DNA of 64,000 nt from Patescibacteria group bacterium. GTDB lineage: Bacteria > Patescibacteriota > Minisyncoccia > Phycocordibacterales > UBA1550. Both the position numbers and the translations under genes were made by a program. Positions within the stretch are counted from its first letter, which is position 1. Each line of letters starts with the position of its first letter. The notes below the pieces were generated by a model. That model had not been told where the DNA came from and did no database searches. It saw only the letters and a program-made list of their open reading frames with translations. Positions 34,437 through 53,061 of the stretch are shown here, one piece after another. The stretch spans positions 1,352 through 65,351 of the forward strand of contig JBBTUT010000003.1 of assembly GCA_038063615.1 (NCBI GenBank). Reading direction: 5' to 3'.

Positions 34437-34437
34437 A

Positions 34438-34462: not shown

Positions 34463-34577
34463 CAGCGCCAGCGCCTACTCTTCTTGTTTGCCGGTTCAGG
34501 ATGATGCGAGGAATGATGCTCACACAGCGTGTGCAAACATTTTTTTTGGTCGCACGCCCCATTTTCTATCCATACCC

Positions 34578-37583: not shown

Positions 37584-37724
37584 AATTAAGGTCAATTGTA
37601 CCAAAACCCATAACTAGCATAAAAGATTTTTGTTCTTGTTGCTGGCATGGTATGATTGAATGGAAGAAAATGAGGTTGAGAGGGTTTTTGATTCTATCGC
37701 ATTAGGTATTTAAAAATATCATGA

Positions 37725-38189: not shown

Positions 38190-38249
38190 GCTGAAGAAGC
38201 TTCGGAGGGGGTGTTTTTACACTCCCTCCGTTTTTATTTAAATAATAGT

Positions 38250-38993: not shown

Positions 38994-38999
38994 AAGATA

Positions 39000-39050
39000 G
39001 CCGTGTTTTTTTGTTTTCTTTTTTTGTGCGGGGCGTGGTATGATTGGGGG
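39000..39050. repeat. 51-nt module gccgtgtttttttgttttctttttttgtgcggggcgtggtatgattggggg, duplicated exactly at 50127-50178
   Basis: Terminator tail plus GGCGTGGTATGAT extended -10 box. Identical copy upstream of the 50202 gene. Confidence 0.8.
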
Positions 39051-39199
39051 GAGAAGGGAAATTTAATTTAAAAAATCAATGGCAACAGATCATTTTGGGG
39101 AAGTTGTGCGAGCCGTGCGTAAGGAGGGACTTTATCCGGAAATCCCGATTGTTCAAAGTGCTGCAACGGAGACAAAAATTGTTGTCGACGGGAAAGACT

Positions 39200-39434
39200 T
39201 CTTACTCTGTTGATGTGGAGGTGTGTGGGTAATTACTCGAAAAAAGCTTGACAGTTTGTTCGTGGTGGGATACTCTGTGGGTAGACGGTAGTGGATGCTT
39301 TGAGGTGGGCTCGAGGTGGCGCTAGTGTACTTTAAAAAGAAAGGAGGTGATGAAAAATTGATATTGATTGGGAGGTTCGACTCGAGATTGGCTTGAGACG
39401 ACTCCAAAGAGCTCTTTAAAAAAGGAGATTTGCC
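39200..39434 (+). promoter_or_regulatory. Promoter plus conserved 5' leader, copy B
   Basis: Paralogous to 37725-37967. Confidence 0.5.
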
Positions 39435-39623
39435 ATGAAAAAGAGTAAGAACACTCGTGTGAGCAAGAATGAGCGTGGTGATAAAGTTATCACTCTGTGT
39501 GGGGTCAGTAACTGTTGCCCTACGGTGACGATTGATAGGGGAGGCAACCATGTCATCAAAGATGACTTCGGAGGTTCAGTCGTACTATCTAAAGAGCAGT
39601 TCGGGATGCTCAAAGAGGTTTAA
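39435..39623 (+). CDS. DUF397-like small protein, copy B (divergent)
   Basis: MKKSKN start shared with copy A. VITLCGVSNCCPTVTIDRGGNHVIKDDFGGSVVLSKEQFGML resembles the DUF397 core. Confidence 0.4.
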   Translation: MKKSKNTRVSKNERGDKVITLCGVSNCCPTVTIDRGGNHVIKDDFGGSVVLSKEQFGMLKEV

Positions 39624-39680
39624 CCGTAGTTCCACTGCATCAAGACGCCTCAAGCTTTACTGTGCGAGGCGTCTATTTTT

Positions 39681-40682
39681 ATGAAAAAACAACATACAGA
39701 ACTTTTATTTGTTCAGATTACCCCTGAGTGTAATATGGGTTGTCGATATTGTCCTTTTTCTAACCAAAATAATCTTATAAATAGACAAAATAATTTTAGT
39801 GCGCAGATCAATTCAATCAAAAACACTTTTGACTCAAAATCTTTCACAGAGAGTTCTTTCGGTGAGTTAATTGTATATGGAGGAGAGGCGCTTCTTTACT
39901 TTGACCAAGTTAAAAGAATAATTAATGAATATAAAAATTTCCGACATTACGGAAAAATAACAGTATGCACTAACGGCATTCTTATTAATCAAGATGTCAT
40001 TACCTATTGTAAAACCAACAAGATAAATGTGACTATAAATATGGATGGGGATTTTAATTTAGTCGCAAGTAATAAATTTTTTTCTAAAACAGATTGGGCT
40101 AAACTCACTGGTAATATAAAAGGACTTCATTCAGAGGGAATACCATATGATTTCTCTACGACCATTACACCTCACTTTATTGAAAATTTTAATTCACAAG
40201 TAAAATTTTTAGAATCTTTGCACCCGAGAATGATAGGTTTTAATTTTTTGAGGGATACTCAAGCACAAAAAGAATTTGGAATAAGCAACCCTGATAATTA
40301 TTTGCAAGATGCTACTTCTTTGGTGTTTAAATATAACTCAGTTGTGAATTTTAATCGAAATAAAAAACTGAGAGCTTTTAAAGAGAAAAAACAGATTTCT
40401 GATTGTATATGTTCTGGGATGGGTATAACTATCCTCGCAACCGGTGAATATACGACATGCGGAATATTTCCATCTCAAAGATGCAGGACATCAAGAGAGG
40501 TAATCAGCATCATGAAGGAAAATTATAAAAAATTATTTTTAGACATAGAACTAGGACAAAACATAAAAGACTTACCAACTTTTGGAGGAGGTTGTTCAAA
40601 GCTCTTGCGAGAGGACAATAAAAGATTTTCTTATTATAATGCTTGGGTAAGTTTTGAACAGTTTAATTATGAAAAATTATAA
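39681..40682 (+). CDS. Radical SAM enzyme with C-terminal SPASM domain
   Basis: CNMGCRYC (Cx3Cx2C) at residues 17-24. C-terminal Cys clusters (CICSGMG...CGIFPSQRC...GGGC). Confidence 0.75.
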   Translation: MKKQHTELLFVQITPECNMGCRYCPFSNQNNLINRQNNFSAQINSIKNTFDSKSFTESSFGELIVYGGEALLYFDQVKRIINEYKNFRHYGKITVCTNGILINQDVITYCKTNKINVTINMDGDFNLVASNKFFSKTDWAKLTGNIKGLHSEGIPYDFSTTITPHFIENFNSQVKFLESLHPRMIGFNFLRDTQAQKEFGISNPDNYLQDATSLVFKYNSVVNFNRNKKLRAFKEKKQISDCICSGMGITILATGEYTTCGIFPSQRCRTSREVISIMKENYKKLFLDIELGQNIKDLPTFGGGCSKLLREDNKRFSYYNAWVSFEQFNYEKL

Positions 40683-41457
40683 AATAGGGGTTATTGGCGG
40701 CTCTGGGATATACACTCTGCAAGACTATAAGTTTTTTGCAGGTAATTTTGACAATGAGTACAAAGATAGTGAGTTGGGAATAGAAAAATATAAATTTAGT
40801 AATTGTGAAATATATTTTTTATCTAGACATGGCAAAAATCATATGATCCTACCTCACGAGATAGATTATTTGACCAATATTAAGGCATTTGATGATTTGA
40901 AAGTTGATTGCATCATATCTTTTTGCACTGTTGGTTCATTAGATTCTAATTTCCAGCCCGGCTTGTATGTTACCCCAAAAGATATCATTGATTTTACCTA
41001 CAACAGGAAAGGATGGAACTACACCAAAGAAAACAAGCATGTTGATATACAGCCAGTTTTTGGCGAGGATTTAATGAGAGTTTGTAAGCAACTGTTTAAT
41101 AATATTAATGTTCCATTGAATAATGAGGGAACACTTGTTGTAATTGAAGGACCAAGGTTTGCTACTCTGGCAGAGCAAAATATGTACAAAATATTCGGTG
41201 GTAGTTTTTTGAATATGACCCAAGCGCAAGAAATTTATTTGTCGCATGTTTTCCAAATCCCATTTATTTCTCTGTGCCACATAACCGACCTGACCTCAAT
41301 CGTAAATAAAAACTATGACCTAACTTCAAGTGATGCGATATCGGTATTCAAAAGCAATTACAGTAAAGTGGAGAGGATATTGAGCGCGCTGGTCAAATAT
41401 TTAAGTGAAAATAAACCAGAAATAAAGTATCATAGTGATAAGCAAACTTTCGTGTAA
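40672..41457 (+). CDS. Purine nucleoside/5'-methylthioadenosine phosphorylase family protein (MTAP-like)
   Basis: IGVIGGSGIY N-terminus, SRHGKNHMILPHEIDY, VIEGPRFATLAE, HITD: PNP_UDP_1/MTAP pattern. Overlaps the radical-SAM gene end. Confidence 0.65.
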   Translation, partial: KNYKIGVIGGSGIYTLQDYKFFAGNFDNEYKDSELGIEKYKFSNCEIYFLSRHGKNHMILPHEIDYLTNIKAFDDLKVDCIISFCTVGSLDSNFQPGLYVTPKDIIDFTYNRKGWNYTKENKHVDIQPVFGEDLMRVCKQLFNNINVPLNNEGTLVVIEGPRFATLAEQNMYKIFGGSFLNMTQAQEIYLSHVFQIPFISLCHITDLTSIVNKNYDLTSSDAISVFKSNYSKVERILSALVKYLSENKPEIKYHSDKQTFV

Positions 41458-41550
41458 CTGCTTGCTATTTTTTACAATATGTTGTACTCTATCCTGAGGA
41501 TAAGTACCTTAACAATGGTATAATAAATTAGCAACAAAAGGAGGCCGATT

Positions 41551-43227
41551 ATGATAAAAGTACAAAATCTTCAGAAAAGCTACGGTTCATTAACAGTGCT
41601 CTCCGATATTTCTTTTTCACTTGGAAGAGGACAGAAGGTGGCATTGGTTGGACTCAATGGAACCGGGAAAACAACTCTGCTTAAAATTGTGGCCGGTCTT
41701 GAGGAGCAGGATGCTGGAAAGATCGACCTTGCAACGGATGCCTGTATCGGTTATCTACCTCAAGATACGGGCCTTTCGGGGAACGAACCCATTATGGACT
41801 ATCTGAGGAAAGTGTCTGGCATTGATGTGCTCGAGAAAGAAATAGGAATTTTGTCTTCTGAGCTGGGTGACCCTGAAAAGGTCAAGCGTTACGGTGATGT
41901 TCGCAGTAAATATGAGCATCTCGACGGTTACTCTTTTGCTCACAGAGCAGAAGTGATGCTTTCAGGATTCGGGCTTGAAGATGTTGGGCTTGACCGCCCA
42001 CTGTCTAATCTGAGCAGTGGGCAGAAAAGCAAAGTGGTACTTGCGGGTATTTTGCTTAAGGGTGTTGATTTGCTTTTGCTTGATGAGCCTACGAACAACC
42101 TCGATCTCCCTGCTCTCATTTGGCTCGAGGATTTTCTGCAAAAATCCAAGGCATCATGCATCGTTGTTTCGCATGACCGCAGATTTCTCGACAAAGTTGT
42201 AAGAAAGATCTTCGAAATTGATTGGCGTACACGCGCACTTACCATCACTGGAGGCACATATAGTGATTATCTGGAAATGGTGGCAAAGCGTGTTGCATGT
42301 CAAAAGGAAGAGTACCGGCTTCAACAGGAGGAAATCGAGCGTCTGAACGAACGGGCGCGCGAAAAGAAGGCGGATGCTACTCGAGGATCACACTGGTCTC
42401 CACGCGACAATGACAAGTTTTTAAAGGGGTTTAAGCGTGATCGTGCTACGAAGTCTTCGAAGGCGGCAAAGGCTATTGAAAAGCGGGTAGAACAAATGGA
42501 TAAGATTGAAAAGCCAATAGAAAGAAAGCCGTTTGAGATACCTCTCAATGCTGAAGTTGATTCTGGTACGCTTGATGTTCGTCTCTCAGATGTTGTGATT
42601 GAATACCCAAACACTTTCCGTATTGGCCCACTGTCTTTTGAGGCACGCTATGGTAGCAGGGTCGGCATAATGGGTCTAAACGGATCAGGAAAATCGACAT
42701 TGCTAAAGACCATAACTGGACAGATGGCGCCTACTCACGGGAAAATTGAGGTTGGTTCTGGTCTCAGGATTGGCAATATGATGCAGGAGCACGAAACGCT
42801 TCCTCGCGAACGCACATTGCTTGAGTTTCTTGAAGAACGGGCACATCTAAGCAAGCAGGATTCATATGCCAAACTGTCAAAGTTTGGGTTCGATGAAAGA
42901 CAGGTCAAGTTGCCTATCAGCACCTTAAGTCCGGGTGGGCGCGCGCGCCTCCTGCTAGCTTTATTCTCAGCCCAGTCGGTCAATATGCTTGTTTTGGATG
43001 AGCCAACAAACCATCTCGATATCGAAGCACTGAATGCCCTTGAAGAAACACTGAGAACTTATCGTGGCACGGTACTGCTCGTCTCTCATGACAGATATTT
43101 CATCGAAAAAGCTTCGCTGGATACAACTTATGTTTTGTCTGACGGAGCTCTGACAAAGATTCCTGATTTTAAGACTTATGTTAAAACAGCAGAAGAGAAA
43201 GCACGAAAGTTGCTTAAACTGTTATGA
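41551..43227 (+). CDS. ABC-F family ATPase (two ABC domains, no TM domain)
   Basis: GLNGTGKTTLLK / LSSGQKSKVVLA / LLLDEPTNNLD, then GLNGSGKSTLLK / LSPGGRARLLLA / LVLDEPTNHLD with an inter-domain linker. Confidence 0.85.
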   Translation: MIKVQNLQKSYGSLTVLSDISFSLGRGQKVALVGLNGTGKTTLLKIVAGLEEQDAGKIDLATDACIGYLPQDTGLSGNEPIMDYLRKVSGIDVLEKEIGILSSELGDPEKVKRYGDVRSKYEHLDGYSFAHRAEVMLSGFGLEDVGLDRPLSNLSSGQKSKVVLAGILLKGVDLLLLDEPTNNLDLPALIWLEDFLQKSKASCIVVSHDRRFLDKVVRKIFEIDWRTRALTITGGTYSDYLEMVAKRVACQKEEYRLQQEEIERLNERAREKKADATRGSHWSPRDNDKFLKGFKRDRATKSSKAAKAIEKRVEQMDKIEKPIERKPFEIPLNAEVDSGTLDVRLSDVVIEYPNTFRIGPLSFEARYGSRVGIMGLNGSGKSTLLKTITGQMAPTHGKIEVGSGLRIGNMMQEHETLPRERTLLEFLEERAHLSKQDSYAKLSKFGFDERQVKLPISTLSPGGRARLLLALFSAQSVNMLVLDEPTNHLDIEALNALEETLRTYRGTVLLVSHDRYFIEKASLDTTYVLSDGALTKIPDFKTYVKTAEEKARKLLKLL

Positions 43228-43230
43228 GCA

Positions 43231-43275
43231 TAGAACCCAACAAGCATAAAAGCTTGTTGGGTTCTATTTATTTCG
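43231..43275 (+). terminator. Hairpin agaacccaacaagc-ataaa-gcttgttgggttct plus atttatttc
   Basis: Perfect 14-nt stem after the ABC-F stop. Confidence 0.7.
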
Positions 43276-43414
43276 GCATGGATTTTAGTATGCCGATGTA
43301 TTCAATGCAAAATTTCTTTCATTTTTCGCATCGGGCGTGGTATAATTGAAATGTAAAAGTTCGTACAAATACTGATTCGAGCGTTGGGTATGAGAAAAAT
43401 AGTTTGTTTTTAAA

Positions 43415-44182
43415 ATGATAAAATTAACTTTTATTGGAAGTGGCTGTTGGCAGGGTATTCCAGCGCCTTTTGGTGCGGATAAAATTAGCCAGAATGTAGA
43501 ATGGGGTTCAAAAGATTTTCGCTTTAGGACATCTCTCCATATTGAAACTGAAAATGGGAAAAGTATTGTAGTTGAGGCAACACCTGATATTAGGTTGCAA
43601 TCATGGAAGTTTAAGTTAGGAAAACCTGATGCTATTCTTGTTTCTCATTGGCACTGGAATCATTTATTTGGGTTGCTCGATTTAGATTGGTTTGCTAAAA
43701 AGAACCCACTTATTGTCTATGGGAATAGTGTGACGAAAGAGTGGTACGAAGAAAGGATGAATCATGTGAATGTTAATTTTCAAACATTTAAGTCGTATGA
43801 GCCGTTTGAAATTGATAATCTTAGGATTACTCCTGTTGCCGTTGAACATGTCAGCGGTACAGATGGGTTTCTGTTTGAAGATTTAAATAGTGGCAAAAGA
43901 TTTGCGTATCTTTCTGATTTAAGTGGGATACCCGATGATACCGTTGGAATGATTAGAGATATTGATTTAATCATCACCGATGTCACATACATTGAATCAG
44001 ATATAAATGATGACCCTACTCATTTAAAGAAGGATCAAATTATTCCGTTTCTCAAGAATCTCAAAGCAAAGGAAATAGTTCTAGTAAACATAGGGTCGTA
44101 TCAAAAGCTTACGCACGATGACCTCGAACAAAAATTTCCTCAATATGCTATTGCGTATGACGGAATGGAGCGATGGTTTTAA
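43415..44182 (+). CDS. MBL-fold metallo-hydrolase-like protein (variant HWHWNH motif)
   Basis: VSHWHWNHLFGL sits where HxHxDH normally is (Asp replaced by Asn). TGGTATAAT box at about 43330. Confidence 0.55.
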   Translation: MIKLTFIGSGCWQGIPAPFGADKISQNVEWGSKDFRFRTSLHIETENGKSIVVEATPDIRLQSWKFKLGKPDAILVSHWHWNHLFGLLDLDWFAKKNPLIVYGNSVTKEWYEERMNHVNVNFQTFKSYEPFEIDNLRITPVAVEHVSGTDGFLFEDLNSGKRFAYLSDLSGIPDDTVGMIRDIDLIITDVTYIESDINDDPTHLKKDQIIPFLKNLKAKEIVLVNIGSYQKLTHDDLEQKFPQYAIAYDGMERWF

Positions 44183-44221
44183 TAGCTATCTAAAAAAGAA
44201 ATTAATATTAAACTATATATT

Positions 44222-45343
44222 ATGAAGTTAAAATCAAATCTCATAGACCAGTTGGACAAGGCAGACAGCCTATTTAAAAACGAAATAATATCCGAATTTG
44301 GAATTCCTGTTTATAATCCAGAATCTCATTATTTGGAGCTAACAAAATCAAAGTATTATTGGGCGTTACTTACCCTCCGCCATTGCCTCAAGGTCTCATC
44401 TGACCAGTACTTTAGTGTTGATGTTGGGGCTACTAACATAGATTTATTTATGATGACACCAAGTGTTTCTTCTCCAATGGGACCAGGTTCTGATTCTGAG
44501 GCAATACCGATAAAGTTTGGGAACCTGGTTACTTTTCTTGTTGATTCGTCCCAGTTTGGTTTTGAGCCACTACTAATTAATAATTTTGATAAAGTATATT
44601 GCTACCTCCCTTCAATGCGTGGTGAAGATCACGACAAGAGGCATCTTAATCAATTTTATCATTGTGAAGCAGAAATAAGAGGAGAATTAGGTGATTTAAC
44701 CCCAATCATAGAAAAATATATTAAGATTTTGGCCGAGACATTAAAAGCTTTGCCAAATCTAACTGAAAAAATTAGTGCTAATATGTCCGCCACAAATAGT
44801 GCAATAGAAGCTATAATATCGGCTGATAAATTCCCTGTGATTACTTTTGACGAAGCGATTGTGTTGTTGGAAGAAAACGGGCATCAGTCACTTGTCAATT
44901 ATTCCGAACATGGGCGGGACATTACTTCTTATGGGGAAATTATTTTATCAAAGATGTTAGGATTTAAAACACCTTTTTGGGTGCACGGCTATGATCGTGG
45001 CAGAGTTGCTTTTTATCAAAAGCCAGACCCTAATAACCTTGACAAGGTTATTAATGCTGACTTAATCTTCCCACCACTTTTTGAAGGGGCATTTGGTGGG
45101 GAAATTGTTGGATGCGGACAGAGACAGGACAATAAAAGTGAGATACTTGAGTCATTGAGAATTCAAAATATATCATCTGAGCCATACGAATGGTATATAA
45201 ATTTGAGAGAGTTACCAGAGTACAAAACCACTTCCGGTTTTGGGCTTGGCATAGAAAGATTTATAACATGGGCACTCGGTCATGATGATATTAGAAATTC
45301 TATTCCGTACCCTCGTCTGAAGAATGTACTAACCTTACCATAA
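44222..45343 (+). CDS. Class II aaRS-like catalytic-core protein (AspRS/AsnRS paralog lacking anticodon-binding domain; AsnA / AS-AR-like)
   Basis: Motif 2-like MRGEDHDKRHLNQFYHCEAEI and motif 3 GFGLGIERFITW. Homologous to the C-terminal half of the aspS at 58349. No OB-fold N-terminus. Confidence 0.65.
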   Translation: MKLKSNLIDQLDKADSLFKNEIISEFGIPVYNPESHYLELTKSKYYWALLTLRHCLKVSSDQYFSVDVGATNIDLFMMTPSVSSPMGPGSDSEAIPIKFGNLVTFLVDSSQFGFEPLLINNFDKVYCYLPSMRGEDHDKRHLNQFYHCEAEIRGELGDLTPIIEKYIKILAETLKALPNLTEKISANMSATNSAIEAIISADKFPVITFDEAIVLLEENGHQSLVNYSEHGRDITSYGEIILSKMLGFKTPFWVHGYDRGRVAFYQKPDPNNLDKVINADLIFPPLFEGAFGGEIVGCGQRQDNKSEILESLRIQNISSEPYEWYINLRELPEYKTTSGFGLGIERFITWALGHDDIRNSIPYPRLKNVLTLP

Positions 45344-45347
45344 AAAT

Positions 45348-46208
45348 ATGAAAAATATGCCAAACTACTACAATAAAGTTACTGAATATTTTAACGAGAA
45401 AGCATCTAGTTATGATGAAGTTGACAACCAAAAATATTGGGTGTTGTCCGATATGTTCTTTAAAGAAATTCTACGAAGAGAACTCCCGGCACTTATTGGG
45501 GACAAAAAACATATCAACCTTTTAGATGCTGGAGCTGGCACTGGTCGCTGGACAATTTTTTTTGATGAAATATTTAAAGATCAATATGATATAACAGGCA
45601 CCCTTGTAGATATTTCAAGTAAAATGCTTGATGAGGCATCTAAAAAATTAAAGGCAAGTGGCGCAGACACCCGCTTTAAGATTAAGAACACTAATATTGA
45701 AAATCTCGAAGATTTCCCCAATAAGAATTTTGATTTAAGTTTATCTTTCTATAATGTCATAAGCTTCGTGGAAGATCCTAAACGGGCACTTACTGAAATA
45801 CATCGAGTTTTGAGTGATGATGGTGTGCACATAAGTATTGTAGCTAATAAATATCATGCATACTACTTTTCGTTCCTTACTAACCGGCTCTCATCAATAG
45901 ATTCAATAAAAAAAGACTCGAAGGTTCGTTTCAATGACCTCATGCCGGCTATCCACTGCTTTACCCCAGAAGAACTAAAAGATCTTTATCTCTCGGCTGG
46001 TTTTAAAACCTGTAGGGTTATTGGTGGCCCAAATTTTATTTATCCTGGAATGGAAGAAACTTATGTGCACGGCAGCACCCCCTCATTGCAAGAGAAGCTT
46101 GCTGAGGCTGATAATTTCCAAAAAATACTAGAAGCCGAACTTGAGTACTACAACATGCCTGATATTGTGGGAAGAGGGAATGTATTACTCGCAATTGCCA
46201 CTAAATAG
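45348..46208 (+). CDS. Class I SAM-dependent methyltransferase
   Basis: Motif I LLDAGAGTGRWT. Confidence 0.65.
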   Translation: MKNMPNYYNKVTEYFNEKASSYDEVDNQKYWVLSDMFFKEILRRELPALIGDKKHINLLDAGAGTGRWTIFFDEIFKDQYDITGTLVDISSKMLDEASKKLKASGADTRFKIKNTNIENLEDFPNKNFDLSLSFYNVISFVEDPKRALTEIHRVLSDDGVHISIVANKYHAYYFSFLTNRLSSIDSIKKDSKVRFNDLMPAIHCFTPEELKDLYLSAGFKTCRVIGGPNFIYPGMEETYVHGSTPSLQEKLAEADNFQKILEAELEYYNMPDIVGRGNVLLAIATK

Positions 46209-46218
46209 AAACATTCTT

Positions 46219-47259
46219 ATGTCTACTCTCTCACTAAAACCACACTATTTGGAAAAAGGGGATACCGTCGGGCTAATAAGCCCAGCTGCCCCCCTTGCTG
46301 GGTTGGTGCCTCACCGTACTGACCAAGGAATCAAAATGTTGGAAGAGCTTGGTTTTAAGATAAAAATTGGATTGAACGCTATGAATATAACTGGCTATAC
46401 TGCTGGCACTGCAGAAGAAAGGGCGTCAGATATAAATAACTTTTTTGCTGACCCAGAAGTAAAAGGAATTGTTTCTTTTATAGGGGGGAATCATTCGAAT
46501 CAAATTTTAGAATATCTTGATTTTGATATTATTAAAAAAAACCCGAAAGTATTTATTGGGTACTCTGATATTACTGTTCTGCATTTAGCCATATATGCAA
46601 TGACTGAGCTAACTACTTTTTATGGTCCAGCAGTTTTGACACAGTTTGCTGAAAATCCTGCAATAATGGAATATACAAAAAAATATTTTTTGAAAGCAGT
46701 TACACAAAAAAGTCCAATTGGCGTGATCGAGCAATCAGTAGAGTGGACAGATGAAACTCTAAATTGGTTCACAAAAGAAGATTTGCAAGGAGCACGCCAG
46801 ATGAAGCTTAATTCCGGATGGAGATGGCTTAAGAGTGGTACGGCTCAGGGGAAATTACTCGGTGGGTGTCTTGCCTCAATGATGCATCTTCGTGGAACAA
46901 AGTATTGGCCAGATTTTGAAAAGGCAATTTTATTTTGGGAAATCTCCGAGGGTGAGGCAGATTTTCGTTTAGGAGAGAGTGTGTCAACAATAGATGCGCA
47001 TTTAACCGATTTGGAGTTGTCTGGCGTCTTCACCTCTATTCAGGGAATGATAGTCGGTCGTCCTTTTGGATATGACTCAGGCCAAGAACAAAAATTAATA
47101 GAAAAAATTTTAGAGAGAACAAAAAAGTATTCATTCCCAATTCTTTATGGTGTTGATATCGGACACACAGACCCGATGATCACTCTTCCTATTGGGGTAA
47201 AAGTAATGATTAATTCAGACAAGAATATTTTTGAAATTTTAGAGAGTGGCGTAATGTAG
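46219..47259 (+). CDS. Peptidase S66 family (LD-carboxypeptidase LdcA / microcin C immunity MccF-like)
   Basis: GYSDITVLH nucleophile motif. C-terminal DIGHTDP catalytic His region. ORF track begins at 46141. Confidence 0.7.
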   Translation: MSTLSLKPHYLEKGDTVGLISPAAPLAGLVPHRTDQGIKMLEELGFKIKIGLNAMNITGYTAGTAEERASDINNFFADPEVKGIVSFIGGNHSNQILEYLDFDIIKKNPKVFIGYSDITVLHLAIYAMTELTTFYGPAVLTQFAENPAIMEYTKKYFLKAVTQKSPIGVIEQSVEWTDETLNWFTKEDLQGARQMKLNSGWRWLKSGTAQGKLLGGCLASMMHLRGTKYWPDFEKAILFWEISEGEADFRLGESVSTIDAHLTDLELSGVFTSIQGMIVGRPFGYDSGQEQKLIEKILERTKKYSFPILYGVDIGHTDPMITLPIGVKVMINSDKNIFEILESGVM

Positions 47260-47379
47260 AACCTCATGGTTGAATGTACCACCGGGGCACTTGACAAATT
47301 ACAAGAACTAATATACATTGTTGCTAGTTTAGTTTTTTGAAATTTCACAAAGGAAACAAACAAATAAGGAGGTGCTAAG

Positions 47380-48675
47380 ATGACACATACAATGTTTGTC
47401 CAGGCGCATTTGGGTGCTGAGTTTTCCGGGATGGCTAGAGTTTTATCCAAGAGGCATATCGGCAAGATTTTATTTTGTGGGGCACGCCTTTTGGAAGAAA
47501 ACATTCAGTTAGTATTTAGAGAGGAACACCTCGCAAACTATCGACACATCGTTAGTCTGCCGAGAGGGAGTTTGCTCAAGGTCTCTGGGAATAAAATACA
47601 TACTCGGAGCGGCACACCATCACTGGAAATAACTTCCGCAGACATTATCCATATCGTCAAAGAAAACTTACCAGATAAACAAAATTGCCTGAGTAGGTCG
47701 CTTCGATATCGTCGCCGAACGATTGATCTTATGACGAACGACACATCTTTCGTCTTTTTTAGGAGGCAATCAGAGGTCTTGATGATAATAAGGAAGTTTC
47801 TTTATGATTTGGGGTATCATGAGTTCATTACTGGCACATTGCAGGAAGTGTTTGAAGGTGGACAGTCTGTGTCTTTCGACACATACTGCAAGGCGACTGG
47901 TAAAAATGTTACTCTTAGCTTAACAAGTGAACTGAAGCTTAGGCGGTTGCTTGTCTCTGGGTTTGATCGTGTGTTTGAGATTGCTCAATCATTTCGAAAT
48001 GAAGGTTCTGACAAACTACATTCTCCTGAGTTTACTCTTTTGGAAATGTATGCTCGCAGTTCTGGACATTTAGAAATGATGGAATTGCTTGAGTCAATGG
48101 TTTCAGAAATTGCTGGGAAAATACAAGATGATTCCGATGTCCTGTTTACTCCAGAAAGATACCGTGCTCCGTTTCAGCGTATTCTTTTTCGAGAGGTATT
48201 CGAAAATCATTTTGGTGATTTTAGCAGATTTAACATTCAGTATTTCTCAGAATTAATGCCAGAGATGTTCAATGTGGCAATGTCTCATTTCACTTGGACA
48301 ATGAAGCTCATTGAAAAAGTGATTCTTCCAACTATTCGTGGACCAGCATTTCTTGTTGAGTTACCAGTTGGAATGTCTCCATTCGTTAAAAATTCAAGCG
48401 ATGGTGTAACCACACAGAGAGCATTCTTTGTCGCTGATGGATTATTTGTCGCCGATATTTATTCTGACGAGAATAATCCAGACATAATACAAAAGAATCT
48501 CGAACAGCAATCAATGGCGGTTGGGAATGTCTTAAATAAAGATTATGTTGAGATATTATCGCTTGGGCTTGGCGAGTCAGCCGGTCTAGGCATGGGCTTA
48601 AATCGTTTATCGATGCTCTTTTTGGGCACTTTGCCTCGCGATATTAAAGAAACTATATTGTACCCAATTCTCTAA
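47380..48675 (+). CDS. Lysyl-tRNA synthetase-like paralog (class IIb, divergent)
   Basis: OB-fold-like N-terminus. Motif 2 FRNEGSDKLHSPEFTLLEMY. Degenerate motif 3 GLGMGLNRLSMLF (Asn in place of the conserved Asp). Confidence 0.6.
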   Translation: MTHTMFVQAHLGAEFSGMARVLSKRHIGKILFCGARLLEENIQLVFREEHLANYRHIVSLPRGSLLKVSGNKIHTRSGTPSLEITSADIIHIVKENLPDKQNCLSRSLRYRRRTIDLMTNDTSFVFFRRQSEVLMIIRKFLYDLGYHEFITGTLQEVFEGGQSVSFDTYCKATGKNVTLSLTSELKLRRLLVSGFDRVFEIAQSFRNEGSDKLHSPEFTLLEMYARSSGHLEMMELLESMVSEIAGKIQDDSDVLFTPERYRAPFQRILFREVFENHFGDFSRFNIQYFSELMPEMFNVAMSHFTWTMKLIEKVILPTIRGPAFLVELPVGMSPFVKNSSDGVTTQRAFFVADGLFVADIYSDENNPDIIQKNLEQQSMAVGNVLNKDYVEILSLGLGESAGLGMGLNRLSMLFLGTLPRDIKETILYPIL

Positions 48676-48689
48676 AAAGGAGGTCTATC

Positions 48690-50090
48690 ATGAACCGTTA
48701 CCCCGATTCTTTTTACAAGAGTCACTCTATTCTTCAAGTAATATCTGAGCATGAAGATTTAGTTAAGGATGTAACCGAAGTCACTACTGCAGGGAGAGTG
48801 CTTGCGCGACGAGCTTTTGGTAAAATCATATTCCTCGATATCCAGGATTTTTCTTCAAAGATCCAGTGCTATGCGAGGGAGGATATCTTAGGTTCGACTA
48901 AACAGGTATTTATTGCGAAGCAACTCAAAGTTGGAGATGTTGTTGGCGTGCGTGGCACAGCGTTCCTCCCAAAATCAGGAGAAAAGTCTATTAAGCTTAC
49001 TGATATATTTTTGCTTTCGGAAACAACTCTTCCGTTCCCAGAAAAATATCACAGGCTAGTAGACCAAGAGGCCCGTTATCGCCAGCGTTATCTTGATCTC
49101 ATTATGAATTCTGATACGCGGAAGATTTTCCAGACACGGTTCTTGTTGTTGAAAGAACTGCGCCGTTTCCTTGATGGTCGTGGCTTTATTGAGGTAGAAA
49201 CACCGATATTCCAACATACCCCTTGCGGTGCATCGGCGAACCCATTTCGGACACGGCACGACGCAAAAGGAATTGATCTTTATCTTCGTATCTCACCAGA
49301 GACATATCTTAAGCAGTTGATAGTAGCTGGGATAGATAGGGTGTATGAGATTGGTAAAAACTTTCGAAACGAGGGGGTTGACCCGACACATCTTCAAGAG
49401 TTTACGATGCTCGAGTTCTATGTCTCCTATTGGAGCTATCGTGAGAATATCGTGTTTGTTCAAGAGCTGTTGCGAGAAATCATTCAGAGGAGCACTGGCG
49501 GGCTGTCTATCCCATGCAACGAGATAACACTCGATTTTGGCGCAGAATGGAGCCATGTGAAATATCGAGATGTTTTACTTTCTGGAACGGGGATAGATGT
49601 TCTTGAGATGCGGAATACTACGGAGCTTCTGGCTGAAATGAAGCGGTGTGGTGTTGAAATTGAGCATGAGAAAGTGGAGTCGCTGGGTTCGATGGTTGAT
49701 AAGCTGTACAAGCGTTTTGTACGACCAAATCTTGTTCAGCCAACAATCTTAATGCAGCATCCAGCATATTTACTGCCTCTTGCTCGCCCAAGTGATGAAG
49801 ACCCTCGTGTTGCGGACTCATTTCAGGTACTGGTTAACGGGTGGGAGATAGTCAAAGCGTATTCGGAACTGGCTGACCCGGAGCTACAACGGTCACTCCT
49901 CGAAGGTCAATCTCAGTCTCGTAAAGACGGCGACAAAGAAGCCATGTTTTTAGATGAAGATTTTCTTCTTTCTTTAAAGTATGGCATGCCACCTGTCTCT
50001 GGGGTTGGAATTGGTATTGATCGGCTTCTCGCGATTCTTACTAATCAACGAAACCTCAATGAAGTTGTTTTGTTCCCTTTGATGAAGTAG
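48690..50090 (+). CDS. lysS: Lysyl-tRNA synthetase (class IIb), canonical motifs
   Basis: Motif 1 region, motif 2 FRNEGVDPTHLQEFTMLEFY, motif 3 GVGIGIDRLLAIL. N-terminal anticodon-binding OB fold. Confidence 0.75.
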   Translation: MNRYPDSFYKSHSILQVISEHEDLVKDVTEVTTAGRVLARRAFGKIIFLDIQDFSSKIQCYAREDILGSTKQVFIAKQLKVGDVVGVRGTAFLPKSGEKSIKLTDIFLLSETTLPFPEKYHRLVDQEARYRQRYLDLIMNSDTRKIFQTRFLLLKELRRFLDGRGFIEVETPIFQHTPCGASANPFRTRHDAKGIDLYLRISPETYLKQLIVAGIDRVYEIGKNFRNEGVDPTHLQEFTMLEFYVSYWSYRENIVFVQELLREIIQRSTGGLSIPCNEITLDFGAEWSHVKYRDVLLSGTGIDVLEMRNTTELLAEMKRCGVEIEHEKVESLGSMVDKLYKRFVRPNLVQPTILMQHPAYLLPLARPSDEDPRVADSFQVLVNGWEIVKAYSELADPELQRSLLEGQSQSRKDGDKEAMFLDEDFLLSLKYGMPPVSGVGIGIDRLLAILTNQRNLNEVVLFPLMK

Positions 50091-50099
50091 CATAGTTCT

Positions 50100-50140
50100 T
50101 CTTTGTTTCCTTGCACGGCTATTGATTTTAAAATCAATAG
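50100..50140 (+). terminator. Hairpin acggctattgatttt-aaaatcaatagccgt plus U-tract, followed by the duplicated 51-nt module
   Basis: Perfect stem after lysS. Confidence 0.7.
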
Positions 50141-50201
50141 CCGTGTTTTTTTGTTTTCTTTTTTTGTGCGGGGCGTGGTATGATTGGGGGAACGGAACGA
50201 T

Positions 50202-51275
50202 ATGGAATTCGCTTTTTTAGTACACCCAAGGGATTTGTCGGATGTTTTTAAAAAATATCCGTTGCTTAAGTTTTTCCCTGTATCATTGACCGAATTCTTT
50301 CTATTAAAATTTTGGCCACCTGTTTTTGTTGCAAAAATAACAGGGTTAAAATTGGTGGGTGGTGGTAATTCTACAAATGGGTGTGTTCTTAGCATTCCTT
50401 TAACCGCAAGGCAGATGATGGAGAATAGGACTGTTGCTTCGAAAAAGATATTAGATGCGACAATTTTTGCTAAAAACATTGGTGTGAAAATTATTGGATT
50501 GGGGGCTCTGACTTCCTCCCTTAGTAAAGGCGGGTTAGATTTAATAGATAAAGTAGATATCAATATAACGACAGGGCATGCTTATACCGCATACAATGTA
50601 ACAAAAAATATATTTGAACTTTGTCGTATTCTCGATCTTGATAAAACAAAAATAACTGTTGCAATTGTTGGGGCGGCTGGGTCTATTGGTTCTACCTCAG
50701 CTCGAGTTCTTGCTCGTGCTGGGTACCAGAATCTACTACTGGTTGATCTTGAAAGAAAGCGACACTTTTTTGAAAAACTCGAAAGCGAACTTAGGAATTT
50801 TAATAGTGGGATTAATATTAAGTTTTCACATCAAATCAAAGATATTATTAATGCTGATGTTGTCATTACTGCAACAAACGCTCCAGAGGCTTTGGTAGAA
50901 GCAGGAGACCTTAAGGTTGGAGCTATCGTTGTTGATGATGCTCAACCATCTGATATTTCAGAAAATGTTTTTGAGAGAGAAGATGTTCTAGTTGTTTCTG
51001 CTGGAGTTGTACATACTCCAAATATCGAAACTCATTTTAATTTCGGGTTAGCAGATAAGTTTGATAATTTTTGTTGCCTTGCCGAGTTGCTGATTTTGGC
51101 ATCGCATAAATGGGACAAACATTATATAATTGATCGAGCAACTCTTGAATCAGTTGATGAAATAGCTGAGTGGGGGGAAGCACTTGGTTTTCATTTGGCA
51201 AAGTTTCAAAACCCAAGAGGGCTAATCTCCACGGAAAAACTCAGTGAAATAAAAAGAATAATTCATCAAAAATAA
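50202..51275 (+). CDS. Acyl-ACP-reductase-like NAD(P)-dependent thioester reductase (AAR / glutamyl-tRNA-reductase superfamily)
   Basis: Architecture parallels cyanobacterial AAR: N-terminus FAFLVHP, W-PP...ITG block, GLGALTS, Rossmann VAIVGAAGSIGS, and conserved catalytic-Cys context NFCCLAELLIL (AAR: MFACFAEAMLL). ORF track begins at TTG 50184. Confidence 0.55.
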   Translation: MEFAFLVHPRDLSDVFKKYPLLKFFPVSLTEFFLLKFWPPVFVAKITGLKLVGGGNSTNGCVLSIPLTARQMMENRTVASKKILDATIFAKNIGVKIIGLGALTSSLSKGGLDLIDKVDINITTGHAYTAYNVTKNIFELCRILDLDKTKITVAIVGAAGSIGSTSARVLARAGYQNLLLVDLERKRHFFEKLESELRNFNSGINIKFSHQIKDIINADVVITATNAPEALVEAGDLKVGAIVVDDAQPSDISENVFEREDVLVVSAGVVHTPNIETHFNFGLADKFDNFCCLAELLILASHKWDKHYIIDRATLESVDEIAEWGEALGFHLAKFQNPRGLISTEKLSEIKRIIHQK

Positions 51276-51276: not shown

Positions 51277-53061
51277 ATGATACTTAACCTTGATATCAAA
51301 AATACATTAATATTGATTATCGCGGTAATCAATATTACATACGGCGCAATCATTTATTTAAAAGATAAAAAGAGCGCTACCAGTAGCTGGTTTTTCCTTT
51401 TGGCCGTCTCGGTGGGATTATGGGGAGTAAGTATGTTTTTATTTCGATCTGCTCAAGAAGAGTATTTGGCCAGTATTTTTTCAAGAATTTTGTATTTCTC
51501 AGCAGCGGTTATCCCCATCGTGTTTATTTATTTTTCAGCTGTCTTCCCAAGTGTTTCATCTGTATTTGGTTTTCGACAAAAATATATTCTGCCAATCCCA
51601 TTTTTTATAATAGCTTTATTCTCCTTAACTCCTGATTATCTGGTAAAGAGTACGCAGATTCTAGTAGGTGAAGAAACACACATTTTATTTAATAATTTTT
51701 ATCATACACTTTATGTTTTTTACATAAATATTTTTTTCGCATACGGATATTTTTTATTGGTTAAAAAATATTTTGTAAGCAGATTTCAAGATGTTGTTTT
51801 AAGTAAGCAAATTATTTATATTATCGCAGGAACATTTATTTCGACAATGATTGGTGTTTTTACAAACCTGCTTGGACCATATATGGGTATATTTAAGTTT
51901 AATTGGGTTGGTCAAATTGGAAATGTCGTTATGATTTCAGCTATCTCATATGCAATAGCTAAACATCAGTTGTTTAACATCAAACTCATCCTCGTTGAAT
52001 TGGCGATTTTGTTGCTTAATATGTTTCTTTTGTTCAATGTGTTTACTTCGCATGCGACGGTGGACTTTGTGCTCAATATCTCGGTGTCATTGTTTGTCTT
52101 TATCTTCAGCATCATCCTTATGCGCGGTATTTACAAGGATATTCGGGACAGAGAGCGGATCGAGGGATTGGCGAAAGAGATGGCGGTGACGAACGAGAAG
52201 CTCCATATACTGGAACAACAAAAGACGGAGTTTGTGTCCATCGCTTCGCACCAGCTCCGCACTCCGCTGACAGTCATCAAGGGCTATGCGTCGATGATCC
52301 TCGAGGGGACTTTTGGCACCATTGCCACTCCGGTGCACGATGCTATGGACAAGCTGTACAAGTCGAGCGAGAGGATCGTGGCACTGGTGGAGGACCTGCT
52401 GACGGTGTCGCGACTGGAGCAGGGGAGAGGCGCGCTTCATTTTGAGACGGTGGACCTCGTGAGAGTCATTCAAATGGTGACGATGGAAATGGATGAAGAT
52501 ATCAAGAGGTCAAATCTCGACTTCTCGTTTACGGTGGAAGAGGGGGGAGAATTCCCCGTCGCAATCGACGAGAAAAAGTTCAAGCAAGTGGTGAAGCACA
52601 TCCTCGACAATGCCATCGAGTACACAAACGCCCCCGGCAGAGTGCGTATCGCTATCAATGAAGACAACATCGCCGACAAAATCCGTCTCACGGTTTCTGA
52701 TACCGGGGTGGGGATGACCGCGGAGCAGATCCAGAGTATTTTTGAGAGGTTTAATTTGAAGATTAAAGAGCAGACGACAAACGACGGACAACAGACGACG
52801 GGGGAAGGGGAAAGGAAAAAGGAAGGAAAGTTTTTATGGCCGAGCCACGAATCAGCTGATTCGAAGTTGAAAGTGGAAAGTGGAATACAAGAATCAAAAT
52901 CAGAAGAACCAGAGACAGAGGCGCCAAACCAGCGCACGCCCGGTATCGGGCTCTACATTGCGCAGGAAATTATCGAAGCCCACCACGGCACCCTGCACAT
53001 CGAGTCCGCCGGCATGAACGAAGGCACGACGGTGATCGTGGAGTTGCCGAGGGCTAAATAA
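51277..53061 (+). CDS. Membrane sensor histidine kinase (multi-TM sensor, HisKA, HATPase_c with low-complexity insertion)
   Basis: H-box SIASHQLRTPLTVIKGY. G1 DTGVGM and G2 GIGLYIA are separated by an about 45-aa Gly/Glu/Lys-rich insert. Confidence 0.8.
   Translation: MILNLDIKNTLILIIAVINITYGAIIYLKDKKSATSSWFFLLAVSVGLWGVSMFLFRSAQEEYLASIFSRILYFSAAVIPIVFIYFSAVFPSVSSVFGFRQKYILPIPFFIIALFSLTPDYLVKSTQILVGEETHILFNNFYHTLYVFYINIFFAYGYFLLVKKYFVSRFQDVVLSKQIIYIIAGTFISTMIGVFTNLLGPYMGIFKFNWVGQIGNVVMISAISYAIAKHQLFNIKLILVELAILLLNMFLLFNVFTSHATVDFVLNISVSLFVFIFSIILMRGIYKDIRDRERIEGLAKEMAVTNEKLHILEQQKTEFVSIASHQLRTPLTVIKGYASMILEGTFGTIATPVHDAMDKLYKSSERIVALVEDLLTVSRLEQGRGALHFETVDLVRVIQMVTMEMDEDIKRSNLDFSFTVEEGGEFPVAIDEKKFKQVVKHILDNAIEYTNAPGRVRIAINEDNIADKIRLTVSDTGVGMTAEQIQSIFERFNLKIKEQTTNDGQQTTGEGERKKEGKFLWPSHESADSKLKVESGIQESKSEEPETEAPNQRTPGIGLYIAQEIIEAHHGTLHIESAGMNEGTTVIVELPRAK
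52801..52885. repeat. 85-nt element (ggggaagggg...aagtttttatggccgagc...aatcagctgattcgaagt.gaaagt) inserted in-frame in the kinase ATP-lid; second copy at 56216-56300
   Basis: Shared 19-nt and 24-nt blocks between the two loci, read directly. Confidence 0.7.

Follow-up and report, generated by a model that had tools for sequence, protein, structure and literature searches.

The locus considered here raises the question of how far the neighbours of a gene can be trusted as a guide to its function. In the 64,000-nt stretch of Patescibacteria DNA that was analysed (hereafter the window), a putative reductase gene, here called RED, lies directly 3' of two genes of the lysyl-tRNA synthetase (LysRS) type, both of them tRNA-synt_2 genes and both immediately upstream, as the preliminary description had reported. 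That description went further and proposed that RED, which it likened to cyanobacterial acyl-ACP reductase (AAR) and to glutamyl-tRNA reductase (GluTR, HemA), reduces an aminoacyl-tRNA or an aminoacyl thioester to an amino-aldehyde, and that a duplicated promoter links it to the radical-SAM region upstream. The best explanation of the locus as a whole, held with a probability of about 0.7, is that RED is instead a native reductase of lipid-type acyl thioesters and that its adjacency to LysRS is due to a block of extra DNA. The features concerned are collected in Table 1.

Table 1. Features of the RED locus, in window coordinates.
Feature	Coordinates	Strand	Remarks
PlsC/LPLAT-type acyltransferase	28496..29191	+	HX4D at H50, FPEGG; ancestral RED upstream neighbour
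Extra block	29086..50199		~21.1 kb; absent at the equivalent position in the closest long relative
54-nt element, copy 1	38997..39050	+	Exact repeat of copy 2, lacking the 5' hairpin arm
Four-gene aaRS-paralog module	44222..48675	+	Also present in other genomes, with no RED ortholog there
AsnRS-like core without anticodon domain	44222-45343	+	Module gene
SAM methyltransferase	45348-46208	+	Module gene
S66 peptidase	46216-47259	+	Module gene
Divergent LysRS paralog	47380..48675	+	231 bits against the lysS model, under the 468 cutoff
Class II LysRS	48690..50090	+	Above curated lysS cutoffs (518.4 vs 468 bits; 480.7 vs 427.6)
Intrinsic-terminator hairpin	50113..50146	+	15-bp stem, 4-nt loop, then T-run; pattern scan
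54-nt element, copy 2	50137..50190	+	RED upstream region; exact repeat
AAR-superfamily thioester reductase (RED)	50202..51275	+	357 aa from ATG; profiles, alignment, model, fold
HisKA_7TM histidine kinase	51277..53061	+	Starts 1 nt past the RED stop (TAA-A-ATG); conserved operon partner

When considered from the point of view of sequence and fold, RED belongs to the acyl-ACP-reductase superfamily, which includes AAR, the thioester-reductase (TR) domain of PigE and TamH, and the TAD domain of non-ribosomal peptide synthetases (NRPSs). Its reading frame is intact, with alternative starts at TTG 50184 and ATG 50202; the ATG agrees with where the closest homologs begin (M[EK]FAFLVHPR), and the public gene call for an identical protein (P0002) is N-terminally truncated, at 306 aa. 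Among NCBIfam profiles, the PigE N-terminal TR domain matches RED with 142 bits (residues 55-356) and AAR with 77 bits, and phmmer and profile searches find PDB entries 4PPM, 6JZQ and 9E4X; a profile built for the RED family scores 103 bits against PigE, 88 against AAR and 66 against TAD. The AlphaFold model (pLDDT 93.2, pTM 0.91) has the N-terminal domain, Rossmann domain and Cys-bearing C-terminal helical segment of the superfamily (COG5322-type), and Foldseek superposes it on AAR and TAD with a TM score of ~0.8, every other match staying at or below 0.41; GluTR fits only in part. All motifs first quoted for the protein are present (FAFLVHPR 3-10, W38-P39-P40, ITG 46-48, VGAAGSIGS 156-164, NFCCLAELL 289-297), and profiles placed RED not in an unrelated dehydrogenase family but closest to PigE TR and AAR. 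The AAR-like identity proposed at the outset is thus borne out by profile hits, fold, an invariant Cys and the TTG motif, which together support RED as an AAR-type, Cys-dependent thioester-reductase homolog. Literature searches on AAR-like enzymes in Patescibacteria/CPR and on COG5322 returned nothing relevant to the RED clade, and we know of no characterized member either of this clade or of its Bacillota/Armatimonadota sister clade.

The residues expected at the active site are equally well kept. Cys292, the second Cys of "FCC", is aligned with Cys294 of AAR and with the Cys of PigE, and is invariant among 38 family members (51-90% identity), in some of which Cys291 is S or A; the conservation of the Cys suggested earlier is confirmed. 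Cys292 stands where the C-terminal helix begins, and the TTG motif where the domains meet, as is typical of the AAR superfamily. T123-T124-G125, the Rossmann glycines G157-x-x-G160-x-x-G163 and Asp182 are also invariant in these 38 sequences. What the Cys, TTG and Asp positions do has been described for AAR, PigE, TamH and TAD (PMC7089970, PMC8341465, PMC9594044, bioRxiv 10.1101/2024.10.28.620694). Asp182 sits at the end of β2, in a 2-residue insertion relative to AAR; from the AAR pocket for the 2'-phosphate of NADPH (R189, R193, R314; PMC7089970), R189 corresponds to the nearly invariant R185 of RED, and R193 is replaced by Phe. This Phe and the invariant Asp182 suggest a preference for NADH over NADPH, and it is because of the invariance of Asp182 at this position that NADH appears the likelier cofactor. 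The TR domain of TamH, which converts acyl-ACP to an aldehyde, is NADH-specific (PMC9594044). By analogy with these relatives, an acyl group would pass from a thioester donor of the acyl-ACP or acyl-CoA type (4'-phosphopantetheine) to Cys292, and hydride from NAD(P)H, more likely NADH, would then release the aldehyde from the acyl-enzyme.

The neighbourhood of RED was compared over 44 non-redundant Patescibacteria loci, with the kinase scored on 41 and the acyltransferase on 33. The kinase starts no more than 250 nt downstream of RED in 37 of the 41, the two genes overlapping in several relatives, and an acyltransferase lies less than 1 kb upstream in about two thirds (21/33). The order acyltransferase - RED - HisKA_7TM, without LysRS, is found in relatives at 75%, 65% and ~40-57% identity, and none of the 44 loci has LysRS or a gene of the aaRS-paralog module. 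The best explanation is that RED, which has a large family of relatives in the Patescibacteria, belongs to the core genes that these Paceibacteria-type CPR bacteria pass on by vertical descent.

LysRS enters this arrangement only by way of the extra block. The spacer between acyltransferase and RED, 162 nt in the closest long relative (L002, 75% identity), is 21.1 kb here: according to blastn, positions 5562-9837 of L002 correspond to 24810-29085 of the window, and 9999-12252 to 50200-52454. RED adjoins LysRS genes in this strain because the block fills that spacer with two ABC transporters, an enolase, an IS200-type transposase, rSAM/SPASM genes, DUF397-like ORFs, an alpha/beta hydrolase, MTAP-like, ABC-F and MBL genes, the aaRS-paralog module and LysRS. 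These genes are surroundings and do not belong to the RED unit. In other relatives the same spacer holds an ABC transporter, an M23 peptidase and a Y1 transposase (L005), an S9 peptidase (L091) or an extra kinase (L007 and L008), so that gene content varies repeatedly at this site. The possibility that the LysRS-RED junction is an assembly chimera was considered and rejected, the same gene order being present on several public contigs (including ones of 82 kb and 123 kb).

Of the two synthetase-type genes, the one next to RED looks, by its scores, like a bona fide LysRS, and the divergent paralog closes the four-gene module. This module occurs in three other genomes (L092, L093 and L094), in different surroundings and never with a RED ortholog (0/3), and in L092 the paralog is likewise paired with LysRS. 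In L094, an AAR-superfamily gene of remote similarity lies 5-7 kb from the module, with a 7TM kinase and a response regulator after it, so that two of the four module loci, the window included, are near an AAR-superfamily gene and 7TM kinase pair; the association may be non-random, or it may arise because both tend to reside in variable regions. A metagenome scan with an alignment of the LysRS paralog did not retrieve the module and returned only ordinary LysRS genes (27-32% identity), since the motifs used, once back-translated, are common to class II enzymes. The combination of AsnRS-like core, methyltransferase, S66 peptidase and LysRS paralog is conserved, and may be the more novel object of the region.

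The DNA between the LysRS stop (50090) and RED carries the terminator hairpin, with a minimum free energy of -22.4 kcal/mol (z = -8.5 against shuffles), followed by its T-run and a conserved promoter-like element. Copy 2 of the 54-nt element comprises the 3' arm of the terminator, the T-run, an extended -10-like TGGTATGAT and GGGGG; TGGTATGATTGGGGGAA is kept upstream of RED in relatives at 89% and 78%, and copy 2 is the native upstream region of RED. The element may act as a promoter, although a promoter scan called no canonical -35/-10 pair there. Terminator and promoter-like element, as read from the sequence, argue against co-transcription of RED with LysRS. Instead, RED would be expressed from its own promoter-like region and co-transcribed with the 7TM sensor histidine kinase, probably with translational coupling.

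The element had been described as a 51-nt duplicated promoter module; the duplication is indeed exact (100% identity, far above chance in 64 kb), but it spans 54 nt. Less can be kept of the link that was drawn from it to the radical-SAM region, since copy 1 lies inside the variable region and precedes only the remnant of a gene, a 44-aa ORF (39079-39213) that stops exactly where another local duplication starts (39202). Its surroundings are a patchwork of a transposase, a truncated SPASM gene and a local duplication of ~230-250 nt with copies 1467-1469 nt apart. In an exact search of JGI metagenomes, a 25-nt core of the element gave 0 hits. As copy 1 precedes only this remnant, the repeat looks like a product of recombination or duplication in a variable region, not a sign of a shared pathway; in the preferred explanation, the native upstream region of RED has been duplicated within the block. 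The common sequence may still bring about some passive co-regulation.

Two of the alternatives to be weighed concern these neighbours. The repeat could be a functional regulatory module shared by RED and the radical-SAM cluster upstream, which would then form a single regulon. In favour of this idea are the identity of all 54 nt and the conservation of the extended -10-like motif upstream of RED in relatives; with identical promoter sequences, RED and whatever genes follow copy 1 would respond alike. It is nevertheless unlikely, given that copy 1 lacks the 5' hairpin arm and has only the remnant behind it, that the region is a patchwork, that no independent occurrence was found in the JGI metagenomes and that the promoter scan called no canonical pair. 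The other alternative is that RED acts with the LysRS paralogs in a reaction resembling that of GluTR, in which Lys-tRNA(Lys), lysyl-AMP or a lysyl thioester would be reduced to an amino-aldehyde. Besides the adjacency itself, Cys-thioester chemistry is common to AAR and GluTR (PMC8341465), a remote AAR-like gene lies within 7 kb of the module in L094, and distant RED homologs are found upstream of greA-lysS in some Bacillota, Armatimonadota and Actinobacteria-labelled loci. The last point was examined and rejected as support for LysRS: greA intervenes, and the proximity is that of a housekeeping dusB-...-greA-lysS block, the RED homologs lying between dusB and greA-lysS, genes that are frequent beside lysS in a control of 80 ordinary lysS loci retrieved by the metagenome scan. 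In this control, 27 loci had greA next to lysS and only 1 had a RED homolog there. Against this alternative stand also the lack of conserved co-localisation across genomes in either direction (0/44 and 0/3), the 21.1-kb block, absent from relatives, that accounts for the adjacency, the presence in relatives without the block of an intact RED under purifying selection, the strong terminator and native promoter-like element between LysRS and RED, and a likeness to GluTR that spans just 184 residues in structure and the Rossmann domain in sequence. Moreover, all characterized members of the family reduce alkyl or fatty acyl thioesters on 4'-phosphopantetheine carriers, and none takes a tRNA-bound substrate (PMC7089970, PMC8341465, PMC9594044, bioRxiv 10.1101/2024.10.28.620694). 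A general coupling to LysRS is thus highly improbable, and the narrower idea that in this strain the aaRS-paralog module next door has recruited RED for the synthesis of an amino-aldehyde deserves just as little credence. The aminoacyl reduction first proposed rested on an adjacency specific to this strain and does not survive a comparison of orthologous loci; that genes adjoin at a hypervariable insertion site does not show that they share a function.

What remains most likely is that RED is an NADH-dependent thioester reductase that works through a Cys acyl-enzyme on lipid-type acyl thioesters. Homology, fold, conserved residues, synteny, the extra block and the terminator hairpin are established, while the chemistry, the cofactor, the class of substrate and the promoter activity are deduced. 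The most likely substrates are lipid or fatty acyl thioesters that take part in the handling of membrane lipids, because a PlsC-type acyltransferase is the ancestral upstream neighbour and a 7TM kinase the partner. The source of the acyl thioesters is a difficulty for this reading, because CPR bacteria are, to our knowledge, thought to lack fatty-acid synthesis and to be unable to make lipids de novo; neither an ACP gene nor an acyl-activating enzyme was seen in the window. A more specific proposal, to be regarded as tentative and rather unlikely, is that RED and PlsC take acyl thioesters obtained by scavenging and make from them fatty aldehydes or alcohols, destined for ether-type or remodelled lipids, the kinase sensing the state of membrane or lipids, which, if true, would constitute a lineage-wide lipid-remodelling unit not yet described. 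Other functions have been considered within the same family. RED might mainly serve signalling, by making or removing a small aldehyde or acyl signal sensed by the 7TM kinase, and not bulk lipid metabolism. Its pairing with the kinase, by overlap or 1-nt spacing, is tighter than its link to the acyltransferase, and the remote AAR-superfamily gene of L094 also precedes a 7TM kinase, there with a response regulator; adjacent to RED and its kinase, however, no response regulator is present in the window or in most relatives' loci. This possibility, for which all the evidence comes from gene context, has a small probability, but is compatible with thioester-reductase chemistry and does not exclude the preferred reading. 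It is also improbable, and somewhat more so, that RED resembles TAD rather than AAR in its chemistry and uses NAD and the Cys for something else, such as amidation or oxidation of a bound acyl group: although Asp182 recalls the NAD-selecting Asp of TAD, and the TTG motif and Cys are invariant in both (bioRxiv 10.1101/2024.10.28.620694), the PigE and AAR profiles are closer, the TAD match stops short of the Cys segment, RED is stand-alone without NRPS, PKS or carrier protein nearby, and the chemistry of TAD is itself still unproven (bioRxiv 10.1101/2024.10.28.620694). Seen as a lipid-type acyl-thioester reductase, RED is a concrete candidate for acyl-chain processing in the CPR/Patescibacteria and bears on how these organisms acquire and tailor membrane lipids; the candidacy rests on its wide conservation and on its place, with a lipid acyltransferase on one side and a membrane sensor kinase on the other.

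Comparison with characterized systems helps to delimit RED further. GluTR (PDB 4N7R, 1GPJ), like the AAR-type enzymes, uses NAD(P)H to reduce an activated acyl group by way of a Cys thioester, but RED can be superposed on it over only 184 (4N7R) or 150 (1GPJ) residues, and the HemA model TIGR01035 matches residues 145-266 of RED only, with 31 bits against a cutoff of 209.55. In GluTR, the catalytic Cys belongs to the N-terminal domain, and the enzyme also possesses a dimerization domain and a long spinal helix, both presumably missing from RED; no heme-pathway genes were found near RED. The TAD of the NRPS CarI (PDB 9E4S/9E4X/9E50) has the invariant Cys, the TTG motif and the NAD-selecting Asp in common with RED, yet is only 18-21% identical to it, with a sequence match limited to the central residues 61-273. 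TAD forms the C-terminal domain of an NRPS module, beside a carrier, and its substrates are peptides tethered to a PCP, whereas RED is encoded by an ORF of its own, and its neighbourhood contains no NRPS, PKS or PCP genes. Cyanobacterial AAR (Synechococcus elongatus, PDB 6JZQ/6JZU, TIGR04058) aligns with RED at C294/Cys292, TTG, GxxGxxG and R189/R185, at an identity of only 22-24% and with 76.7 bits against the TIGR04058 equivalog cutoff of 449.7; Y247 of AAR corresponds to an invariant Gln248 (DDAQPSD) in the RED family. The conserved neighbours also differ from those of AAR, being a PlsC-like acyltransferase and a 7TM kinase for RED, and no ferritin-like aldehyde-deformylating oxygenase (ADO), the partner of AAR in the alkane pathway, was found among the neighbours within ~7 kb on either side of RED or among those in nine related loci. 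The TR domain of PigE and TamH, from prodigiosin and tambjamine formation (PDB 4PPM sequence; NF053554), is the best sequence match of RED and shares with it the catalytic Cys and, at the N-terminus, the segment M-x-F-x-F-[IL]-x-H-P. PigE and TamH are, however, fusions to a class III aminotransferase in pigment clusters, whereas RED covers only positions 58-359 of the 837 of NF053554 (142 bits against a cutoff of 850) and, as a stand-alone protein, has no aminotransferase or pigment genes nearby. Finally, stand-alone AAR-like proteins of Bacillota, Armatimonadota and Anaerolineae occur in the order dusB - [HTH] - 300-aa protein - RED - greA - lysS, without acyltransferase or 7TM kinase, the 300-aa upstream partner having no Pfam, NCBIfam or PDB match. 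In spite of this different context, these proteins, such as that of Neomoorella stamsii (L064), are 32-37% identical to RED over the full length and have the same PigE and AAR profile matches (221 and 124 bits).

The reductase gene is an intact reading frame (coordinates in the table), and its ATG start, shared with the closest homologs (M[EK]FAFLVHPR), gives a protein of 357 aa. The public call for the identical protein (P0002, 306 aa) starts 51 codons late, skipping 50202-50354 of the window, and so is without the FAFLVHPR N-terminal segment that all homologs have. Every motif listed in the preliminary description is found in the protein. Pfam recognizes only a Shikimate_DH-type Rossmann domain; the model of the PigE N-terminal thioester-reductase domain matches residues 55-356 (142 bits), that of cyanobacterial acyl-ACP reductase (AAR) residues 44-330 (77 bits), and that of HemA only the Rossmann segment 145-266 (31 bits). 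The top PDB-sequence matches are PigE (4PPM), AAR (6JZQ/6JZU) and the NRPS terminal amidation domain, TAD (9E4X/9E4S), with the match to GluTR (HemA; 1GPJ) being confined to residues 152-265. Structure prediction and superposition, as proposed earlier, gave a confident AlphaFold model from 38 homologs (pLDDT 93.2, pTM 0.91), which Foldseek superposed on both AAR and TAD with TM-scores of about 0.8 and on everything else with at most 0.41. Thus, the resemblance to AAR noticed earlier is full-length homology, and that to HemA is partial, in sequence holding for the Rossmann segment. Homologs amount to 591 matches among the scored candidates, the best 120 being 52-100% identical, with at least 347 matches in GTDB species representatives; they are mostly Patescibacteria (Paceibacterota, Kaiser-, Nomura-, Zambryskii-, Azam- and Portnoybacteria).

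In the NFCC motif it is the second Cys, Cys292, that aligns with Cys294 of AAR and with the Cys of PigE, and it is unchanged across 38 homologs (51-90% identity), as expected of the predicted catalytic residue; Cys291 varies, being Ser or Ala in some. Likewise invariant in this set are H8, R10, T123-T124-G125, G157/G160/G163, D182 and the D246-A247-Q248-P249 block. In this superfamily the acyl-enzyme intermediate is carried on the Cys (PMC7089970, PMC8341465, PMC9594044), and in TAD the TTG motif positions the Cys, while an Asp after β2 selects NAD over NADP (bioRxiv 10.1101/2024.10.28.620694). Asp182 of the reductase directly follows model strand 177-181, within a two-residue insertion relative to AAR, and AAR R189 and R193 align with R185 and a Phe, respectively. 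Because of the Asp182 position and the R193-to-Phe difference, the enzyme would be expected to prefer NADH, as shown for TamH. Acting as a stand-alone AAR-superfamily thioester reductase, it would accept the acyl moiety of a phosphopantetheine-type thioester on Cys292, where NAD(P)H, probably NADH, would reduce it to an aldehyde. Its substrates are presumably of the lipid or fatty acyl class, since the characterized relatives all use alkyl or fatty acyl thioesters (PMC7089970, PMC8341465, PMC9594044), a PlsC-type acyltransferase drawing on the same kind of acyl donor is the ancestral neighbour, and the N-terminal segment at residues 19-44 (YPLLKFFPVSLTEFFLLKFWPPVFV) is strongly hydrophobic; that the substrate is specifically a fatty acyl is a tentative proposal, with slightly less than an even chance of being right.

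Overall, with a probability of about 0.7, the protein is an AAR-type reductase encoded by a core gene and functionally not tied to LysRS. In seven contexts picked by exact protein, the core order is PF01553 acyltransferase, reductase and HisKA_7TM histidine kinase, often located after GrpE-DnaK-DnaJ and before TrpRS and AspRS. Synteny counts over 44 non-redundant Patescibacteria loci place the kinase start at most 250 nt downstream of the reductase in 37 of 41, with frequent overlaps (1 nt separates stop and start in the window), and the acyltransferase at most 1 kb upstream in 21 of 33. This context is of interest for lipid handling in CPR bacteria, about whose lipid metabolism little is understood. 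As a side observation, an NYN-domain protein, a DUF5674 protein and a small ORF (53210-54504) are inserted between tandem HisKA_7TM kinases in the window; the closest relative has the two kinases adjacent.

Coordinates of the features discussed (window positions unless a relative's locus is named)
Feature	Position	Strand	Description
Reductase ORF	50184 (TTG) or 50202 (ATG) to 51275	+	Intact reading frame
Acyltransferase	28496-29191		HX4D and FPEGG, motifs of active PlsC/LPLAT enzymes
LysRS	48690-50090		Passes curated lysS cutoffs (518 bits vs 468; 481 vs 428)
Divergent LysRS paralog	47380-48675		231 bits vs 468; weak OB domain
aaRS-paralog module	44222-48675		AsnRS-like catalytic core without anticodon domain, UbiE-like SAM methyltransferase, S66 (LdcA/MccF-type) peptidase, LysRS paralog
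Module elsewhere	L092 8206-14215; L093 6991-11317; L094 7788-13366		Same four genes
Remote AAR-type locus	L094 16042-21150		FadL/Toluene_X-type gene, remote AAR-superfamily gene, 7TM-GAF histidine kinase, response regulator
HTH/300-aa/reductase unit	L064 (Neomoorella stamsii) 6333-11250		Also in about 15 further non-CPR loci
Small ORF	37968-38189		73 aa, DUF397 match
Small ORF	39435-39623		62 aa, similar Cys-containing core
Hairpin and T-run	50113-50146		Between LysRS stop (50090) and reductase; 15-bp stem, pattern scan

Two tRNA-synt_2 genes do sit immediately upstream of the reductase, and from this it had been suggested that the enzyme reduces an aminoacyl-tRNA or aminoacyl thioester to an amino-aldehyde. 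Across the 44 Patescibacteria loci, no LysRS (≥35% identity) or gene of the aaRS-paralog module occurs near the reductase. Moreover, blastn of L002, the closest long relative (reductase 75% identical), against the window aligns 5562-9837 with 24810-29085 (GrpE to acyltransferase) and, collinearly, 9999-12252 with 50200-52454 (reductase and kinase), so that a 162-nt spacer in L002 corresponds to 21.1 kb in the window. A functional tie to LysRS is therefore not supported, and an aminoacyl-tRNA or lysyl substrate appears very improbable. The block comprises two ABC transporters, enolase, an IS200-type transposase, a truncated SPASM gene, a gene of unknown function, two DUF397-like small ORFs, an alpha/beta hydrolase, a radical-SAM maturase-like gene, an MTAP-like phosphorylase, an ABC-F protein, an MBL hydrolase, the aaRS-paralog module and LysRS; as housekeeping-type genes (enolase, bona fide LysRS) lie inside, it is termed absent in relatives rather than foreign DNA. 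The acyltransferase-reductase spacer is a hot spot for gene-content change, since relatives hold differing genes there: an ABC transporter, an M23 peptidase and a Y1 transposase in L005, an S9 peptidase in L091, and an extra kinase in L007 and L008.

Outside the CPR bacteria, in Bacillota, Armatimonadota and Actinobacteria-labelled MAGs, LysRS does lie 0.75-3.7 kb downstream of distant homologs (32-37% identity) at 14 of 43 loci. The Neomoorella order is coaX - dusB - ... - HTH protein - unknown 300-aa protein - reductase - greA - lysS, and the 300-aa partner (no match in Pfam, NCBIfam or PDB) and dusB/greA recur across these phyla. Of 80 ordinary lysS loci from metagenomes, taken as a control, 27 have greA as a neighbour, 11 have dusB and one has a reductase homolog; a reductase-LysRS unit in Bacillota-type loci was rejected on these counts, and the proximity is that of a small reductase operon inserted into a common dusB/greA/lysS neighbourhood. 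Conversely, the divergent paralog belongs to a Patescibacteria family of its own (about 70 clusters, 36-53% identity; NCBI label ‘amino acid--tRNA ligase-related protein’), and the order and surroundings of the module genes vary among Patescibacteria loci, a bona fide LysRS (ortholog) standing beside them in the window and L092. When all ORFs of the three other module loci were searched with a profile, no reductase ortholog came up; L094 does carry a distant member of the AAR superfamily at 5-7 kb from the module (Pfam CER1-like_C; 47 bits; hhalign 96% at 23% identity, with the Cys aligned), which is followed by a 7TM-GAF kinase, so that AAR-type and 7TM-kinase pairing recurs outside the reductase family. 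The L094 pair stands beside a hydrophobic-compound transporter. Such a pair is thus near the module in two of four module loci, the window included; both may simply share residence in variable regions, and a weak association between them is conceivable. The module may be the more novel object of the region.

The hairpin upstream of the reductase (MFE -22.4 kcal/mol, z = -8.5 against shuffles), a predicted terminator that would insulate the gene from transcription of LysRS, leads into an exact 54-nt repeat (38997-39050 = 50137-50190), which starts within the 3' arm and takes in the T-run, then an extended -10-like TGGTATGAT, then GGGGG; the duplication reported earlier is exact, at 54 rather than 51 nt. 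Since ...GTGGTA[TG][GA]ATTGGGGGAA is kept upstream of the reductase in the 89% and 78% relatives, copy 2 (50137-50190) is the native upstream region. Copy 1 has no 5' hairpin arm and is followed by a 44-aa ORF (39079-39213), probably a gene remnant, ending where a further local duplication begins (39202). Its likeness to the N-terminus of a Kbl/AONS-type alpha-oxoamine synthase (EGLY...I.QSA...V.DG; BLOSUM62 local score 44), obtained with what we take to be the E. coli Kbl sequence, is a lead only. In our reading, the repeat arose by duplication or recombination inside a patchwork region, by which two transcription units may incidentally have been given the same promoter; promoter function is presumed, because the pattern scan called no canonical -35/-10 pair at the element. 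With copy 1 preceding the 44-aa ORF in this patchwork, the repeat indicates no shared pathway between the reductase and the radical-SAM region, contrary to the earlier suggestion.

Within the same region, the two small ORFs of the table share a duplicated leader of about 230-250 nt (37735-37984 and 39202-39451; 84-96% identical, 1467-1469 nt apart), in which a promoter-like TTGACA/GATACT pair is combined with a long 5' region. As the second small ORF precedes the radical-SAM maturase-like gene (39681-40682), the set may represent either a cassette for peptide modification or an RNA leader element. An IS200-type Y1 transposase (35111-35785) overlaps the start of an ORF (35733-36467) that has just the C-terminal SPASM portion of a radical-SAM enzyme, which suggests a truncated gene and recent rearrangement within the variable block. 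Just upstream of the module (40654-43227) lie the MTAP-like phosphorylase (171 bits, under the curated cutoff) and the ABC-F gene, passing the NCBIfam ‘ribosomal protection-like ABC-F’ cutoff (421 vs 380); together with the S66 peptidase, they could serve a small-molecule pathway in self-protection or salvage. L002 also lacks a second block (17917-24809), a defence-island-like insertion between the ribosomal protein cluster and grpE that carries, on the minus strand, a Fic-domain protein, an EcoRI-type adenine methylase, a GmrSD/HNH endonuclease and a PRiA4_ORF3-like gene. Finally, one 570-aa ORF (61273-62985) fuses RadC-like JAB/UPF0758 domains to a C-5 cytosine DNA methylase domain, an unusual combination.

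When compared with known systems, the reductase has the features that define the superfamily, namely the fold, the Cys and TTG. It nevertheless does not belong to any of the specific families: it departs from AAR proper in its score and in having no ADO partner among its annotated neighbours, from PigE/TamH in not being a fusion, from TAD in having no NRPS context, and also from GluTR. It is best described as an uncharacterized variant, with a distinctive and conserved context of acyltransferase and 7TM kinase.
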